Part shown: piece by piece, positions 5,300 to 43,530 of the stretch
Position numbering within the stretch: the stretch's first letter is position 1
Layout: every line of letters begins with the position of its first letter
NCBI GenBank assembly: GCA_951804945.1
Contig: OX638153.1
Span: 73,718,001 to 73,782,000 of the forward strand
Source: Podarcis cretensis
Taxonomy: Eukaryota
Length of the DNA: 64,000 nucleotides
Reading direction: 5' to 3'
Made by a program: the position numbers and the translations under genes
The notes under the pieces: generated by a model
What the model was told of the DNA's origin: nothing
Seen by the model: only the letters and a program-made list of their open reading frames with translations
Database searches by the model: none

Positions 5300-6832
5300 A
5301 TCTTTGATTCAAACCTTTTTTTTTATTAAAGTATGAATGCCTTTACATTGCAGAATAGTTTACATACATTGGAAAGCAATAAGCATATTATTTTCAAGAG
5401 GTGCAAGTCCTCCTCAGTATGTTCCCATGATCAATCTACATGCTGTGACACTGATCGCACACGCAGACACACATACACACACTCACACAAACATACAAAG
5501 TTTACATATTCACACACAATGGAACAGACTGCTAGAGCTATCTGCTTTGATTAGCTTTCTTTTAAGGCTTCTGTAAGGTGCCCTCGTGCCCCTAACATTA
5601 CCACGATTTATGAACAAGACTATATGTATAAAGGAGCAGCATTATCTGCAACCTATTAATCAGCACTTGGCCTTTAAACATTATTATTTTTTAAAAAAAG
5701 AAACAAATAAACAACTTTCTCAAGTTATGAACCCTTTCATCTGTGACCAGAAAAGGGTTCTGGAAATATTAGTATGAGGTTTTGAATCACAACAAATAAT
5801 CTGCTTTCAAACCTGATCCCTTTCCACTGTAAGACACCCTGTGATCAAACTGGACCTAAAAAGTGATACCCAAGGAAGTGGGGTCAATATGGACATAGCT
5901 GGTGGCAAGACTGCTGTGGAACTAAGGGTCTCATACCATGCCAGAACTGAGGGAAAGCATATGAGGCAGCTTAACTATTAACTATCCAGGATCTTTATTT
6001 TGAAGCTATTTATATACTGCTTAATTACCGAAGTTTATCATTAATTACCAAATTACAATCTCTCACAATCTTCAGCAGTGGTTCGGTCATCCCAGGCATT
6101 CAAAAACAGTTCACAATCAGGTCCCCCAGCTCCCCAACCTGCCTTCTGGTATCCCTGCAAGTTTGTATTTAAAAACTATAGGGCTAAAGTGGAAAATGAG
6201 TGGCTGCAGGTACATTTAAAAGGTAAAATAAAATAAAATATAGCATATGATTATAGTGTGTAAATATAAGCATCTCTGAATATTCAAACTGTGAAATGTG
6301 AGTTTATGTAGATTTTCAGGCTGTTAATCTAAAAGACTGCAGGTAGCTACTTCAATCTGGAGACGGTCAACAGGATTAGCAGTAGGCCACCAAATTGTAT
6401 TTTCTTCTCTAGAAATGGATCCCATTTGCAACTGTATTAAGACTCTAGCAACAAATCCTAGAGGATTCTATCATTAGAATTGTTCACTTGTTTCAACAAG
6501 CAAAACTGAAATAATTTATTATCTTTATGAGACGAGCCTGAACTGTGAGGGCCAAAATGGGGCTGGAAGCTGTGGCTGAAGGTAAAATGGAAACACAAGT
6601 AAAAATGCTTTGTCACATTTTTAAACAGCAGCAGCAGATTTCAATGTGGTGCAGTTATTATAAAGATGCATATATTTTAGGGAATTTACTGAATTGCTTC
6701 TTTATTTTGAAAAGCTGATCAGTCACATGTTGGGTGCCCCATCACTCCCACATTGAACTGTTGCTTATTCATCTATATACTTCTATTCCCAGGGCCATTT
6801 TCTGCTTTTGCTTAACCAGTAATGAGTTCAAG
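5300..6832 (-). other. PID1: Probable PID1 3' UTR
   Basis: AT-rich stretch largely free of recognisable repeats between the stop codon and the candidate polyA signal. Confidence 0.5.
5322..5327 (-). promoter_or_regulatory. Probable PID1 polyadenylation signal (AATAAA on minus strand)
   Basis: TTTATT on the + strand about 1.5 kb past the PID1 stop, with a U/GU-rich tract downstream on the minus strand (CTCTTTGATTTTATGTGTACATTCCTGTTTTATTTC). Other TTTATT hexamers lie nearer the stop, so the choice is inferred. Confidence 0.5.
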
Positions 6833-7309
6833 TCAGCCATCGTCAGATTCCAGTTCTTGAGACATTTCTTCAGATGAGCTATTCCTGTGGATCCGTCCAT
6901 CACTCTTCATGCTATGGAAAGTCTTCTTAAAGGCCTCCATCATGGCATGAGCCAACTTCTTGGCCTCTAACTTGCTCTCGCACTCTACAGCATGGCAGTC
7001 CATTTGGTAGGACAAATCATCGTTGATCTCCCGATAAACCCAAGCAAAAATGTTTGGGCTGACATTGTGGTCGGCAGTGCAGTAAGCAATACGTGCAACT
7101 TGAAAGGTATCCATGTGGACAGTGGCCTCTCCTTTGAGGTCCAGATGATGAAGCCAAACTTGGAAGGGGCGGATTTCCAGAAGGGCATTAGCTGAGAAGA
7201 TGTCCTCTCTGGCAAGCGTGTGCTTCTTCCACAACTCAATGACTGGTTTCTCCGTGCAACCTGACAAAAACTGCATCCCTGTTGTGGAAACTTTACCCAA
7301 ATATGTAAC
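6833..7309 (-). CDS. PID1: Terminal coding exon of phosphotyrosine interaction domain containing 1 (PTB/PID domain; NYGGF4/PCLI1), 158 aa + stop
   Basis: The translation VTYLGKVSTTGMQFLSGCTEKPVIELWKKHTLARED...FAWVYREINDDLSYQMDCHAVECESKLEAKKLAHAMMEAF...ELESDDG* matches the vertebrate PID1 C-terminal portion as I recall it. A phase-0 acceptor TCTTTTCTTAG|GTT has its AG at 7311-7310. The ORF-track start at 7300 is an internal TTG (Leu), not a true start. Confidence 0.96.
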   Translation of the reverse strand, partial: VTYLGKVSTTGMQFLSGCTEKPVIELWKKHTLAREDIFSANALLEIRPFQVWLHHLDLKGEATVHMDTFQVARIAYCTADHNVSPNIFAWVYREINDDLSYQMDCHAVECESKLEAKKLAHAMMEAFKKTFHSMKSDGRIHRNSSSEEMSQELESDDG

Positions 7310-8124
7310 CTAAGAAAAGAGATAGAAAGGAAATAAAGTTTGTCAACAGAAGTCTTTGGAATTTCAATTTCAACATGTTGTGATCTTTACACAGAACACC
7401 AATAGCATCACTTGAAAATTGTAAACCTATCTCAGCTCAAGCAATTTTTAGCTTGGGATTTTCAAAGTCTAGTTGACGTTGAATTAGAACTACTGAATTC
7501 ACAGTACATCCAAATATTGCATCACCTGACAATTCTATTAAAAAGCTGAATATTCAGCTACTGAGTACATCCATATTAGTTTCGTAATGATCAAAATGTG
7601 CCTATTTTGTCTTCCAATTAGACTTAAGTATGTATCATACAAGAATACAAAGATCTGAAGCAGCATTTTCAAATCTGAACTTACGTCTGCCTATCTTCCA
7701 ATGATTGCTTCTAAATGTAGAAGTACAACAGAAGATAAGCACTCTGTTCCTACTAGCTCTCAAATTTTACTTCTGTAATAGTGCTAAAATAATACATTCC
7801 AAGTGAACTGGTGTAACACAGTGAGTTAATTATACAATGTTGTGCATGTTTAATCCGAAGCAAGGCTCAATGAGTTCAGGAGGGCTTGCACTTATTTGGG
7901 AAGTGTTTTAGGACTGCAGCCTAAGACATGCTTAGTCAGGCATTATGCTTGAACAGGGAATCCTAATCAAAGTATGGGGCACTGAGTGGGAAGGTTTGAA
8001 GATAGTCAAACACACATAGAGACCCCCTTCAAAGCTTCTCACTCAACGTGGGAAGCTCAGAGCAAGCAGGAATGGCATACACAGCTCTATGGTTCCTATT
8101 CATGCTGGTATACGGTGTTCAGAG

Positions 8125-38610: not shown

Positions 38611-39189
38611 CAACAACCCCCTAATAACAGGAAAGTATATTCTTTTTATCATATTTTAGACTAGAAAGCATCAAAACAGGAACAAACACAAATGCAGCAC
38701 TGTGCAAAAGCTTATCTAAACTATAAAAAAACAACCCTCGGTATTTTGGATAAAAGAACTAAAAGAAAGATTAACTGAATAATGCCAGACTCTGTCATAA
38801 AAATATGGAGCATGCTGAGAAGCTGTGTAATAAAGATTTTAATACCCACAGAGCAGAGTTCCAGCAGTGTAAGAGTTCAGCAGGTCTTGGATAATAACAT
38901 TCTACTGTTTTGTTCTTTGGGGGGGAAATCATAACAAGAAAAGAAACATGTGTGAAAAATGATCTATGGGACACTACTAATGCAAACTACTGAGTAGCTA
39001 GCCATTGGTTAGTGTTAACATTTTCAACTATGTTTTCAGTGACAAAGTTCCCCACTGCCCTCTGTTAGGCAGTGTGCCGGTCATGAAAAGCTAGTACAAT
39101 AATTATACTAGAAGTCTCCATTCATTGCTTCCCATCATTAATCACCTTGTTACTTGCAAAACCTTTTGCCATATTTTGATCATTCACAT

Positions 39190-39270
39190 AAACACTGAGG
39201 TTTTTAAAATCTATTTTCTTTTCCTTCTCTGTTTTTTTACACATAAACCACATGCATGGGAGGTTCAAAA
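39190..39270 (+). repeat. 81-bp direct repeat, left copy (flank of YR retroelement)
   Basis: Identical to 43450-43530 except for one base (39232 T vs 43492 G). Confidence 0.95.
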
Positions 39271-40605
39271 AGCCTTTCCTCCTCCCAGGAGGGGAGGGGT
39301 TGTGATCGGGAGATGATTCCCGCATCATGCAGGGAGCGCTCCGCCCCCTGCTTCAACTCCAGGGCTGGCGCCACGCCCCTCCCCAGTTGGGCACTCAATA
39401 GGGAAGCTCGACGGGGGAGTGGCTTGCTGCTCAAACGCAGCCGCGCCAGCAATCCCCACCATTGCACACACATTTTCTTCGAGTCAGGAGTCATCGCAGG
39501 GAAGAGCTCAGCCACAAGGTTTGGAGTCGGGGGTGTTTGTGTGTGTGGAGGCTGTCTGGTTCCTGGCTTGCCTTTTTAAATTTAGGAGGCTTGCGTGCAC
39601 TCATTGCTTTACTGCTTTTAAAAACCGAGGCACCCAAGTTTGCCTTGCTGTCTTGCTGTGTCCTCTTTTCTGTGTAAAAACCTACATTTAACCTTTTATT
39701 TTCCCCCACTCCTGGTGCTGGATTTGTTTGAGCGGTTTAAGTGTGAATTACCTTTCTTAAGCTGCAGCTTGTTCCTTTGCCCAGCACATGGTCTCTCCAC
39801 CCCCAGCGAGGTCTGAGTGTGAGTGCCGTCTTTCTATCTCCCTTGTCTCCTCACTTTCCTTCCCCGACCTCTGCCTTGGTGGCTGTGCGTTTTATTTTAA
39901 TTTTGGCCAGGGTGCCTGTATGTTTTTCCCCTCTATTGCCCTTGCCCGTCTGATTGCCTGGCTGGTCTGGGTGACTGAATGGGTTTGCCTTTCATTTTAA
40001 TTTGTTGGCCAGGGTGCTTGTACGTTTCTCCCCTCCATTGCCCTTGCCTGTTCCTCTCTAATTTTAAGTCGTGTGTGTGTGTGCTGGCAGCGTGTGTTTG
40101 TGCCTGCCGTTTGTTGATTTATTACTCTTTTAGCGTGGGTTTGATTTACCCTGCCATCCCTTCCATTGGTACCACTTAAATCGGGAGCCTGTGAAATTTT
40201 AAATGATGCCGGGGCTTAGAATAGACTGTGTGCTTAAACCTCACCCCTCTTTATCTAAGCCACACACACCCTCTTCGCTTGGCATTTGGGGGAAGAAATA
40301 AGGCAGGGCTTGGGGCGGACAATTCAGGGTTTCTGATCAGGGAACCATTCCTCAGCATTGCACATTTATACATTTAGAACCTTTGAAGGTGTACCTTTGC
40401 CTGGTTCTTGTCATTGGCTTCACTTGCCAGTACAGAGTCCTTAAAGAAAACCGCTTTTAAACAACAACAACAACAACAAGGTTGCGGCTTATAGAACCTT
40501 ACTGAAAAGTCCAGGCTAACCCACGGTTTATATTTCCACTTCATTTTGGCTCACTGTAAAGGACAGCTATTTTCCTTTTCTTCTAAACTTTTCCTTGCCC
40601 ATCCG

Positions 40606-41060
40606 CATTCTTCGATCGAATTCTTCAATCGGGCACTAAGACTTATCCGGAATTTTGGTCACAAGGCACTCTTGGCAAAATGTGACATAGAGTCAGCCTT
40701 CTGTCTATTGCCGGTTCATCCCAATGACTTTCATTTGCTGGGATTCAAATTTCAAGGGAAATATTACATTGTCAAGGCTATGCCGATGGGTTGTTCTGTA
40801 GCCGGCTCGGCCTTTGAGACATTTAGCACCTTTTGGGACTGGGCCTTGCGCTACAGAACCAACTCACCTGGGGTGACACTTTACCTTGGTGACTTTCTAC
40901 TCGTTGGGAAGCCCAATACCGGCGAATGTGCCTCCCCCTTCTGGAGGCCTTTTCAGCTTGGGAGTTCCCCTCACGGTAGATAAGACGGACCCTCAATGCA
41001 TCTTACTTACCTGGGTATAGAGCTTGACACAGCAGCTCAATCTGCCTGCCTGGCCAAAGG
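40606..41060 (+). pseudogene. Reverse transcriptase of the YR element, disabled
   Basis: Motifs ALLAKCDIESAF.LLPVHP, MPMGCS, YLGD (40882-40893, in place of YLDD), LGVPL and LTYLGIELDT lie in shifting frames. The N-terminal part is missing. Confidence 0.9.
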
Positions 41061-41106
41061 GGAAAATAGTTGCCCTTAACGAAACAATTCGTCAAACCCT
41101 TCCCAA

Positions 41107-41150
<44 letters not shown>
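41107..41150. repeat. (AAT)n microsatellite expanded inside the RT-RNase H linker
   Basis: About 14 AAT units between ...QTLPK and KKVALRQVQSLL. Confidence 0.9.
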
Positions 41151-41151
<1 letters not shown>

Positions 41152-41154
<3 letters not shown>

Positions 41155-41757
41155 GTCGCTCTTAGACAGGTCCAGTCCTTGCTAGATCATTTCAACTTCG
41201 CATGTAGAGTAGTTTCACCAGGCCGCCCATTTTGCTCCCGCTTAGCCAGGCTGTCAGCGGGCCTCAAGCATCCGCACCATAGAGTAAGACTTCCCAAGTC
41301 AGTCAAGGCGGATTTTGAGATGTGGATCAGATTTCTGGAACACTACAACGGAGTCTCCCTATGGCAGGAAATCCTTAATTTGGCCTCTGATTTCCAGGTC
41401 CACTCCAATGCGGCAGGGTCCCTGGGCTTTGGTCTGTTCTTTAAGGGACGTTGGTGCGCGCAACAATGGCCAGCAGAGTGGCAAGGGGAGGCCATCATGC
41501 GGGATCTCACTTTTCTGGAGTTTTTTTTTTTTCTCATATTTGTGGTGGTTCACATATGGACCGAGGAGTTCCGGAATCGCCGGGTGTGCTTCAGAACTGA
41601 TAACCAGGCTGTGGTTAACATACTGGCTAGCAGTTATTGCATTCTGAGAGGGGTCTCGCCTACTTCGATCATTTGTGCTCCGATGCCTTGCTTCCGGTCA
41701 TTAGCACCTTGGGCTCAGCTGCTGCCAGAATCCTTTCCGAACCTATGGAACCTTGGA
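41152..41757 (+). pseudogene. Tether + RNase H of the YR element, disabled
   Basis: QSLL.HFNFACRVV.PGRPF; HSNAAGSLGFG (first catalytic Asp changed to Asn, 41407-41409); LTFLE; FRTDNQAVV. The segment with the last Asp (N.IADALSR) appears deleted, and there is a T12 run at 41521-41532. Confidence 0.88.
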
Positions 41758-42405
41758 GACGCGAAGTGATCAAGGGAGTATTAGTGTCTGTTGCACCCTC
41801 TACCCTCAGGTCTTATAAGAAAGTATGGTGCAACTTCACAGGTTTCAGGTCCAAAGTATCGTCCCTTTCCCCTATCGTATGAAACTTAGGTCAATTTGCT
41901 GGTCCAAGTTTGAGGCCCGGCTGTTCTCTGCAAAATACGTTATAGCCTTCTTTGGTGCCTTGCGGGTTGGCGAGGTGGTAGCAGAAGCTACCTCAAGTGG
42001 AACAGCGCGCAGCCTCCTCCTGGAGGACGTGCAGGTCTCCAGTTCAGGCGTGGTGGTGTGAGTGCATCAGTCTAAGATGGACCAGGGCGGTAAGGGCACC
42101 GTAGTACAACTCACGGCCTCCGGTCAGAAGGGCCCATGCCCAGTAAAGGACACCAGGCGATACCTTTACCTCAGACCTCCCGGCCTTGGCCCGCTCTTCG
42201 TTCATGAGGATGGATCCCGACTGATGAGGCACCAATTCACCAGGGTACTTTGCAAAGCGATAGATGCCTGCGCTTTCCCTTCCAAAGACTATGCGGCACA
42301 TTCATTTAGGATTGGTGTGGCCACAACGGCCTCATGGGCCTTCCGGCAGACAGGATCAAGGAGATGGGCCGCTGGAAATCTAATGCCTACAAAAGTATTC
42401 TGAGA
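41745..42405 (+). pseudogene. Tyrosine recombinase of the YR element, disabled
   Basis: MEPWR..SVAPSTLRSY, then an internal deletion, AFFGALRVGE (Arg I), in-frame TGA 42059-42061, SKMDQ (Lys), CPV, HSFRIG (HxxR, 42299-42310), a frameshift, and MGRWKSNAY (Trp and catalytic Tyr, 42388-42390). Confidence 0.92.
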
Positions 42406-42413
42406 ACGCTCCG

Positions 42414-42443
42414 CTTACCTGTCTTTTCTTTCTTTATTCTTAG
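42414..42443 (+). promoter_or_regulatory. Predicted branch point, polypyrimidine tract and 3' splice acceptor for the SGNH ORF
   Basis: CTTAC (A at 42417), CTGTCTTTTCTTTCTTTATTCT, then TAG| with AG at 42442-42443. The SGNH frame has no ATG upstream of its catalytic Ser. Confidence 0.7.
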
Positions 42444-43018
42444 CTGTCTTCGGTAGTCCAGTGTGGATTTGCGGCCACAGTATCGTGCATTGGGCCCGCC
42501 TCCAGTCAGCAAGTTCCGGCTTCATGCCTAATCTGGGGCTACCATCGTGGGTGCGAGTTTCCTGGTTGTCGAGAAGGGGCATGCACTGGCAAGAACTCAT
42601 GCCACTGCTGAAGGCAAAAGCTGCGCTGTTGGGCCCCCCTAACATTCTAATCATTCAGCTGGGTGAGAGCGACCTGGCTAGCAGGAAGAGTGTGGACTTG
42701 CTGTGGAACATGAGAAAGGTCTTGGATGAGTTGGCTGCCTTATTTCCCAGAACAGCCCTGTTCTGGTCCTCTCTCTTGAAGAGAAAGGTTTGGCGCGGTG
42801 TGCATAACATTATGGCCTTTGAGAAATTCAGGAAACTCTTGAATCGCGCGGTAGCGCGCAAAGTGCGTTTTATGAATGGCCTAGTTATATCTCATGATGA
42901 TATCCAGATTGGCGACCAGACCCTATTCCGGGATGACGGTGTTCATCTTTCAGATTGCGGAAACAACATATGGCTGGCTAACATATCCAATAGTCTTAGG
43001 GATTGGTTGCAGCTGTGA
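42444..43018 (+). CDS. SGNH/GDSL hydrolase (esterase/lipase-like) ORF of the YR element, uninterrupted
   Basis: Block I WICGHSIV (Ser 42479-42481), block II RRGMHW, block III IIQLGESDL (usually GxND) and block V FRDDGVHLS (42935-42946). No stop or frameshift over about 190 codons. Confidence 0.85.
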
Positions 43019-43449
43019 GGGTATTGGCGGCAAGCCTTTTGGCTCAGGTGGCGGTTAGGCATTGGAATGTGTTGTTGGTGTTTTGGGTGGCAAGGTGTGG
43101 CCATCGCCTTCCCCGACAATTTTGGGTATTCCGCTAAAGGAATCCAGTGGTCGTGGATCCTGTCCGATGCCCGTGTGGCGGGGGGCCATGGCACGACCCT
43201 CGGTGACATCAGGAAGAGAGCCTATAGTTGGATTAGCATCAACAGGCTTCCCCTACTGGTGGTTAACCCCTCCTCAAACTCACCCCTCTACAAGTGGGTG
43301 GAGTCTAATGTTCCGTGGTCCAATGCCTAAGCCAATACCTTTTCACATGCTGTAATCAATAAAGTTGTGGCCTTTACCTTACCCATTAACCTTACATTCT
43401 GTGTCCATGTGTCTTTATTCCCCAAGCGGGGATCGGGTCCTCGAATCAC

Positions 43450-43530
43450 AAACACTGAGGTTTTTAAAATCTATTTTCTTTTCCTTCTCTGGTTTTTTAC
43501 ACATAAACCACATGCATGGGAGGTTCAAAA
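43450..43530 (+). repeat. 81-bp direct repeat, right copy
   Basis: 80/81 identical to 39190-39270, offset by 4260 bp. Confidence 0.95.

Follow-up and report, generated by a model that had tools for sequence, protein, structure and literature searches.

The window analysed here is a stretch of 64,000 nucleotides of Podarcis cretensis (contig OX638153.1, positions 73,718,001 to 73,782,000) and contains, on the forward strand, an internally deleted copy of a Ngaro-type tyrosine-recombinase (YR) retrotransposon. The assignment to the Ngaro type is made from the order of gag, RT/RNase H and YR, the split direct repeats and the SGNH ORF that follows the YR. Intact relatives show this ORF order, while the window copy has remnants of RT/RNase H and YR and has its gag deleted. 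The split repeats A1...B1 A2 B2 are found in relatives L161/162, L169/170, L173/174, L202 and L082, of which the window copy keeps A1 and B1 only; an SGNH ORF of the amphibian type is present after the YR. The pol ORFs are ~600 aa long and end shortly past an ADALSR motif and, on the question of a methyltransferase, a Pfam search with one pol gave RVT_1 only. The superfamily to which the window copy belongs includes carriers of the gag donor described below (L206, L064 and L063). The features of the locus are collected in Table 1.

Table 1. Coordinates of the retrotransposon copy, its flanks and its splice signals within the window.
Feature	Position	Strand	Basis or remark
Left direct repeat of 84 nt beside the element, resembling a target duplication	39187..39270	+	98% identity to 43447-43530; absent from other copies
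Deleted Ngaro-type YR copy, A1 ... B1, without A2/B2 downstream	39269..43451	+	Ends set by other copies; relatives with full A1..B1-A2-B2
5' terminal segment, A1-type repeat, window's subfamily	39269..39479	+	5' start common to L004, L005, L007, L033; equivalent recurs after B1 in relatives
Long non-coding leader, first part	39480..40600	+	Common to high-copy non-autonomous subfamily
ATG mini-exon and GTGAGT donor of the first-pass annotation; unconserved, probably incidental	39788..39824	+	Copy counts, shuffles, intact elements
Junction of ~3.7-kb deletion; rest of leader, gag and start of pol gone	40600..40602	+	Alignment to L077
RT/RNase H remnant, broken	40602..41769	+	ORFs; weak RVT_1 match, E 4e-4
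Tyrosine recombinase remnant, broken; relatives' YR acceptor absent here	41720..42403	+	ORFs, comparison with relatives
Best remaining donor-like site, GCG/GTAAGG, phase 1	42087..42095	+	Used in public model P0001; unconserved in intact families
3' splice acceptor, conserved, with CTTAC resembling a branch point, a pyrimidine tract and TAG	42414..42443	+	Comparison among copies
SGNH hydrolase terminal exon, phase 1	42444..43018	+	GHS serine 42479-42481; GESD for GEND; DGVH; structure model
B1 repeat with AATAAA at 43358	43053..43451	+	Followed by a repeat of 43053-43451 in L082, L095, L202
Right 84-nt flanking direct repeat	43447..43530	+	Pair of 39187..39270

The deletion is placed by the alignment to L077, in which the match to 40601 stops at L077 position 1841 and resumes from 40602 at position 5580. 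The window copy is a dead remnant. It is without the gag donor and therefore a Gag(N)-SGNH fusion cannot be made from it. The first-pass annotation suggested that this copy could still make protein, which is unlikely because ~3.7 kb including gag are lost.

The same annotation proposed that the SGNH ORF is reached by splicing at the acceptor at 42414-42443, and comparison among copies supports this part of the proposal. The acceptor is in phase 1 of a stop-to-stop frame of 204 codons (42404-43018) that has no Met ahead of the GHS serine. Among 102 distinct SGNH sites from the same genome, 95 have a pyrimidine tract with a YAG that closes exactly 20 nt ahead of the W codon of WxxGHS, while at each of the distances 15, 16, 18, 19 and 21-26 nt the count is 0/102. 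Clustering at 80% identity gives 33 SGNH clusters, 31 of which keep the acceptor, with a mean pyrimidine content of 0.81. An in-frame Met lies upstream in only 8 of these 33 clusters, and the YR frame relative to the SGNH frame is distributed 10/7/6. Neither a conserved in-frame ATG nor a YR read-through into SGNH, which the first-pass annotation had named as sequence-based observations that would count against splicing, was found among the 102 sites and 33 clusters. Judged from the sequences, the splice acceptor of the start-codon-less SGNH exon is real and conserved across many distant families.

The structure model of the window SGNH protein (pLDDT 89.5) matches GDSL/SGNH structures with an E value of 2e-8 and a TM score of 0.78, and the top ones among 164 PDB matches at E <= 0.001 are again GDSL/SGNH. 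The Pfam match of this protein is below threshold. As modelled, the protein of the terminal exon has the SGNH fold. The catalytic blocks of the family are GHS, RRGM, GEND and DGVH; the window copy has GESD in the place of GEN in the 12 other aligned sequences, with S replacing the N of block III. A Gag(N)-SGNH product would consist of the Gag N-terminus and a globular alpha/beta hydrolase, and from sequence and fold it would have no signal peptide, transmembrane anchor or fusion protein of the env type.

The likely donor for this acceptor lies in gag. All 10 intact gag ORFs (10/10) carry a phase 1 donor at one alignment column, which is the sole single-codon column among 52 invariant Gly columns, and the GTA of the donor is retained where Thr is changed to Met. 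The site is weak. It is located at 4112 in L167 and at 4178 in L179, where the SGNH exon begins at 7506 and 7553 and the YR acceptor comes after 6489 and 6550, respectively. Two genomic copies (L125 and L199) have the gag donor joined exactly to the SGNH acceptor, and two others (L136 and L139) have a YR-internal CAG/GTAYGA joined exactly to the same acceptor. These joined copies carry AG/GT or G/GT at both ends and could therefore have arisen by template switching. In two further deletions the endpoint is 7 nt away from the acceptor and GT is absent. Genome-wide pattern searches for gag-SGNH and gag-YR copies gave 0, 1 (L125 itself), 0 and 0, with no gag-YR copy. L005 was considered as a spliced copy and rejected as a deletion, as it joins 39479 to 42442 via TTCTT with the AG retained and no GT; L004, L007, L171, L204 and L212 are likewise deletions.

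In public gene models, which are predictions and possibly propagated between lizards, Gag(N) runs into SGNH at the donor column in 16 of 27 longer matches, and in 7 of the 27 (lacertid models) a host gene is joined to the same SGNH acceptor. The P. lilfordi model P0042, which has a non-RefSeq accession, shows the same Gag(N)-SGNH join. Among 12 near-length matches, 4 begin in the YR and 3 read through the pyrimidine tract. Since the conserved donor lies in gag, the product is likely a Gag(N)-SGNH protein of about 410-470 aa rather than the 201 aa of the first-pass annotation.

A phase 1 acceptor is also present where the YR frame begins in 11/11 lizard copies, where it is within RNase H coding sequence and its conservation is therefore confounded. 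A search at the beginning of pol gave no conserved phase 1 acceptor, and thus we claim no Pol splice. In the frog Bombina, 33 public protein models have one common N-terminus and continue into Gag (5), YR (16) or SGNH (12). In these models the continuations occur as isoforms of single loci. The Bombina Gag core matches lizard Gag with an E value of 4e-23.

Taken together, these results suggest, with a probability of about 80 %, that the window holds a gag-deleted copy with a conserved acceptor to which intact members of the family splice a weak phase 1 gag donor, yielding Gag(N)-SGNH. The first-pass annotation placed the donor in the leader instead, so that a mini-exon (MVSPPPARSE) would be spliced to 42444 and the window copy would make a 201-aa esterase. 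Its coordinates are all correct (ATG at 39788, 31 nt, GTGAGT at 39819; CTTAC, pyrimidines and TAG at 42414-42443; AATAAA at 43358), as are the pyrimidine/AG ending at 39784 and the length (31 + 575 = 606 nt). The signals are present and in phase, and the pair is the sole one of ATG and phase 1 donor at that score within the leader. A true mini-exon layout even exists at another locus, L221, where MMQAE is followed by GTGAGT 4.7 kb before an SGNH acceptor, in agreement with models P0006 and P0217. Among 32 aligned copies, however, the ATG is found in 30, the GTGAGT in 4 and both in 2 (the window copy and L033), and no counterpart exists among 10 intact elements. When the leader was dinucleotide-shuffled 500 times, 37% of the shuffles contained an ATG and donor pair that scored equally well by a heuristic donor matrix. 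As printed, the 12 near-length and the 27 longer public proteins all start with something other than this peptide, and a better donor is present at 42090. We consider this leader donor very unlikely.

It is even less likely that the acceptor is real and its main donor is internal to the YR (KTDQxG or CWS), giving a truncated YR-SGNH or a regulatory RNA. Joins near KTDQ are seen in models P0001, P0002, P0008, P0215 and P0039, and the copies L136 and L139 have a YR-internal donor joined to the acceptor. Yet no YR column has a donor score >2 in at least 4 of 9 intact copies, the codons of KTDQxG vary, and the CWS donor is in phase 2 of the YR and therefore out of frame with SGNH. The site at 42090 was rejected as the donor of the family. 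The least probable account dispenses with splicing: unspliced RNA would be the template for SGNH translation, through stop-restart at an ATG immediately behind the YR stop, through read-through or through a frameshift, and the pyrimidine run would encode a hydrophobic leader. In some subfamily B copies (L069, L073 and L063) TAG-A-ATG is indeed followed by a frame that stays open into SGNH, and unspliced reads cross the acceptor of a relative. The scarcity of an in-frame Met and the changing YR-to-SGNH frame argue against it, as does a spacing that, in undisturbed copies, ranges from 13 to 76 nt against the fixed position of the YAG; differences in tract length among copies are also not in triplets.

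RNA data for the intact relative L167 come from four runs with low coverage (only 36-77 records each, from diverged relatives), and at that coverage there are 0 raw reads over the donor and 0 donor-acceptor joints. In X21, 7 reads cross the SGNH acceptor of a relative unspliced. Among records with the window stretch, no RNA record carrying it was found.

For the intact elements we hypothesize that unspliced RNA would serve for Gag, Pol and the genomic template, that joining the gag donor to the acceptor where the YR frame begins would yield Gag(N)-YR, and that joining it to the last acceptor would yield Gag(N)-SGNH. The common N-terminus would supply the start codon and may tether both enzymes to the RNP of the element. 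In lizards Gag(N) is of low complexity and ends with a K/R-rich stretch. By analogy with ZfL2-1 ORF1p, the esterase may act on or bind membrane lipids. On balance we favor the broader view that vertebrate Ngaro elements, from frog to lizard, have a conserved programme of alternative splicing in which one gag donor gives Gag and fusions of Gag(N) with the recombinase and with the esterase. Such a programme would explain how the YR and SGNH frames, which overlap and are poor in ATGs, are expressed, and would converge on the basic-motif-plus-esterase design of LINE ORF1p. In this view the portable phase 1 esterase exon has also been taken up repeatedly by host genes.

How overlapping downstream ORFs in YR retrotransposons are expressed is not addressed in the part of PMC9210276 covered here. 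[quoted passage not shown] With a named donor and two acceptors the model is testable with existing RNA data, and the proteins to study shift from bare domains to Gag(N)-SGNH and Gag(N)-YR. The model would account for many gene models of lizards and amphibians that are labelled 'uncharacterized', and for the recurrent gain of an esterase exon by host genes.

Retroviral env and gypsy env are made from spliced subgenomic RNAs. The Ngaro arrangement resembles them in that a 3' accessory ORF would be expressed via spliced RNA and gag/pol via unspliced RNA. Unlike env, the product would be a cytoplasmic-type esterase and not a fusion glycoprotein, ~225-280 Gag codons would be kept in lizards and ~600 in the frog, and the same donor likely serves the recombinase too. 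LTR elements typically express their ORF3s, which include some GDSL esterases, via spliced messages (PMC5408684).

The closest known elements, Xenopus DIRS-53_XT and DIRS-54_XT, are Ngaro-like YR retrotransposons with an SGNH ORF whose hydrolase function is unproven (PMC9210276). Like the lizard family they have the order gag, RT/RH, YR, SGNH and split repeats A1..B1 A2 B2. They are described there, in the part covered, as having overlapping ORFs with no mention of splicing or introns, whereas the lizard SGNH is an ATG-less exon, in a squamate. In the ORF1p of the LINE ZfL2-1 an SGNH esterase follows a region that contains an arginine-rich motif, in one unspliced ORF1 with a coiled coil (PMC3905857), and its structure (PDB 4c1b) is a fold match to the window SGNH with an E value of 1.9e-7. 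In contrast to that single unspliced ORF, the Ngaro protein is likely assembled through a splice out of Gag, and by analogy it may bind lipids. Finally, LAP2alpha and ZNF451 co-opted a DIRS1 gag through alternative splicing (PMC4495291). In a similar way host genes splice into an ORF of a YR element in the 7 lacertid models at the SGNH acceptor, but LAP2alpha and ZNF451 represent gag domestication, while the Ngaro case would be the element's own expression route.

The splice acceptor that the first-pass annotation had placed ahead of the SGNH exon is real, as a survey of 102 distinct WxxGHS sites among loci collected from the genome indicates (protein searches gave about 1,800 candidates each, 150 of which were scored; an exact motif occurs 317 times). 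A YAG ends exactly 20 nt ahead of the W codon in 95 of these sites and at 17 nt, in the same phase, in three more; of the four left over, one is a point mutant, one has GAG, one has a duplicated start and the last is the joined copy L125. The position holds by majority in 31 of 33 clusters (80 % clustering) and the tract has a mean pyrimidine content of 0.81; a loose branch motif, on its own weak evidence, is present in 31/33 clusters. Across the 23 clusters in which the YR (tyrosine recombinase) frame is readable, its phase against SGNH splits 10/7/6, and an upstream in-frame Met occurs in only 8 of 33, so alternatives to splicing fail. Both figures also weigh against translation of SGNH from unspliced RNA by restart at an ATG just after the YR stop, which stays a minor rival because some subfamily B copies have an in-frame ATG directly there.

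The SGNH frame in the window is open for 204 codons and, as previously read, has no Met ahead of its GHS serine. Its AlphaFold model (pLDDT 89.5) has a predicted fold matching GDSL/SGNH hydrolases, among them 4c1b, the ZfL2-1 LINE esterase; the Pfam match alone is below threshold, and block III has S where N is expected. Separately, the high-copy non-autonomous subfamily L081-L098 has a frameshifted SGNH with tandem 93-nt repeats and an intact acceptor.

The donor proposed for this acceptor, a GTGAGT at 39819 following ATG 39788, is unsupported. Among 32 aligned copies (30 loci plus L065 and L074) the ATG is found in 30, GTGAGT in four and both in two; most read GTGAAT, possibly still a weak donor. 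An equal ATG and phase-1 donor pair arises in 37 % of 500 leader shuffles scored with an approximate donor matrix, and none of the ten intact elements compared has a match to this leader region.

Judged by conservation, the conserved donor is in gag. When ten gag ORFs from nine families (L161 and L169 being close) are aligned, all ten carry a phase-1 donor at one column, between a K/R-rich stretch just upstream and an acidic Ser-rich stretch downstream; the next-best column has a donor in 4/10, and no column of the YR and pol alignments has one in as many as four copies. The sequence is N(A/C/T)G|GTAYNT, with GTA kept where Thr is replaced by Met. GGT accounts for 97 of 335 gag Gly codons. Of the 52 columns with invariant Gly, the donor column alone uses a single codon, and among 161 invariant G/P/A/T/Q/V columns two do, the donor included; some aligned ORFs are partly frameshifted. 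The donor is present in the window's superfamily (L206, L064, L063) and deleted in the window's subfamily as well as in two high-copy non-autonomous ones.

Public lizard gene models contain the corresponding join. Of 27 longer homologs, 16 (Podarcis, Zootoca) run through Gag up to the donor column and continue in the SGNH exon, seven have a host gene, in one case labelled zinc finger protein 638-like, joined to SGNH exons, and four begin within YR. The gag join recurs in the P. lilfordi protein P0042, whose accession is non-RefSeq; 12 near-length homologs have mixed structures.

Host-gene fusions form a separate set of observations. In lacertid models P0031-P0034 and P0036-P0038 a zinc finger 638-like host gene is spliced to at least three different Ngaro SGNH exons, and locus L132 appears to be the counterpart of the P0037 exon. 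Long host-like proteins that contain several SGNH repeats (P0040, from a gecko, P0041, P0045-P0047, P0049) and fish proteins with this SGNH type at their end (P0143, with cold-shock domains, and P0128) are possibly older domestications. The apparently single-copy locus L221 has an open SGNH exon (acceptor 7753), decayed YR upstream and, 4.7 kb ahead of the acceptor, an MMQAE mini-exon (3089) with GTGAGT; annotation of two Podarcis species includes its 200-aa protein, and L221 may be a domesticated gene.

Four genomic copies fit reverse-transcribed spliced RNAs. In L125, 99.5 % identical to L179, a 3.37-kb stretch is absent whose limits are exactly CCG|GTACGT and the SGNH acceptor; L199 has the equivalent donor, that of the L164/L209 family, fused to an L167-type SGNH exon, with no single parent among the collected loci; in L136 and L139, which belong to two families, a YR-internal CAG|GTAYGA runs into the acceptor. 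Template switching could also have made them, because G|GT or AG|GT is common to donor and acceptor. Against spliced RNA as the source, of 19 junctions with a 10-kb parent available two fit GT-AG, one of these at the acceptor, and two others end 7 nt from the acceptor without GT. Genome-wide pattern searches gave no additional joined copies. No RNA record was among the sequence records carrying the window stretch. Four RNA runs mapped thinly on locus L167 (62, 57, 36 and 77 records, mostly <95 % alike) gave 0 raw reads over the donor and 0 donor-acceptor joints; in run X21, seven reads pass unspliced over the acceptor of a related family, a pattern expected of genomic RNA.

In frog models one N-terminus has three continuations. 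The 33 Bombina bombina proteins fetched, part of clusters of 5, 45 and 35 members, share an N-terminus that ends at the same residue and then continue in Gag core (5), YR (16) or SGNH (12). LOC128635663 has X1 joining the Gag N-terminal part, Gag(N), to YR and X2 joining it to SGNH; at LOC128645196 and LOC128644531 a Gag isoform is accompanied by a YR or SGNH isoform. As a rule, NCBI builds alternative isoforms only from transcript alignments. Homology links the frog Gag core to lizard Gag (E 4e-23), and in the frog protein models the switch point likewise comes before an acidic Ser-rich stretch. Near the start of the YR ORF, 11/11 lizard copies have a pyrimidine-CAG in phase 1 of the YR frame, its codon being CAG in 51/51 collected sites vs 144/235 pol Gln codons. 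For lizards the case for Gag(N)-YR is less certain, since this acceptor lies in RNase H coding sequence and no lizard model joins it to the conserved gag donor. No conserved phase-1 acceptor was found ahead of pol in lizard copies. The leaders of L161, L167, L178 and L179 share GGTTGTAT, a motif that lies 150-250 nt from the 5' end, and have an AG just ahead of the gag ATG, which suggests a leader intron in MAPKK-type families.

We propose, with a probability of roughly 0.8, that the element relies on a single weak donor in gag. Gag, Pol and the genome would come from unspliced RNA; use of the last acceptor would yield Gag(N)-SGNH (about 410-470 aa in lizards) and use of the YR acceptor, probably, Gag(N)-YR. 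By analogy with ZfL2-1 ORF1p (PMC3905857), the basic N-terminus may tether the RNP and the esterase act at membranes.

All coordinates of the first-pass annotation proved correct on re-reading. Its suggestion that this copy could still make protein is unlikely to hold: with the gag donor and YR acceptor lost and S for the block III N, the copy is probably inert. Relative to L077 it lacks about 3.7 kb, comprising the remainder of the long non-coding leader, gag and the pol start, and stops and frameshifts disrupt its RT and YR. Podarcis and other lacertids supply the nearest named proteins.

Coordinates of the element and associated features in the window
Feature	Position	Remark
Element ends	39269 and 43451	from other copies in the window's genome
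Flanking direct repeat	39187-39270 and 43447-43530	about 82-84 nt
Missing segment	40600/40602
Open SGNH frame	42404-43018
AlphaFold-modelled part	42446-43015
Host-gene exon, PTB/PID domain	6836-7309 (-)

Like the window element with its duplication of about 82 nt, L046, L048, L051 and L060 are flanked by duplications, of ~11, 17, 37 and 11 nt; such copies are mostly 3'-truncated, and the duplications are unexpected for recombinase integration and absent from most surveyed copies. Three deletions (L004, L005, L007) all start within 39479-39485, and two copies, L029 and L030 (L077, L078), are two-subfamily mosaics joined near the YR end. The element possibly lies inside an intron of the PTB/PID host gene, which we take to be PID1, on the opposite strand.

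The element type and its SGNH ORF are already known, and for LTR elements spliced accessory ORFs have been described (PMC5408684). No report of this splicing plan in YR elements was found in the literature searched, including the available parts of PMC9210276, PMC7192593, PMC5408684, PMC8547959, PMC5633606, PMC4157794, PMC6681497 and PMC3783388. The assignment to Ngaro rests on structure: relatives have ORFs for gag, RT/RH, YR and SGNH, along with split direct repeats A1...B1 A2 B2, the same layout as the Xenopus Ngaro-like families in PMC9210276.
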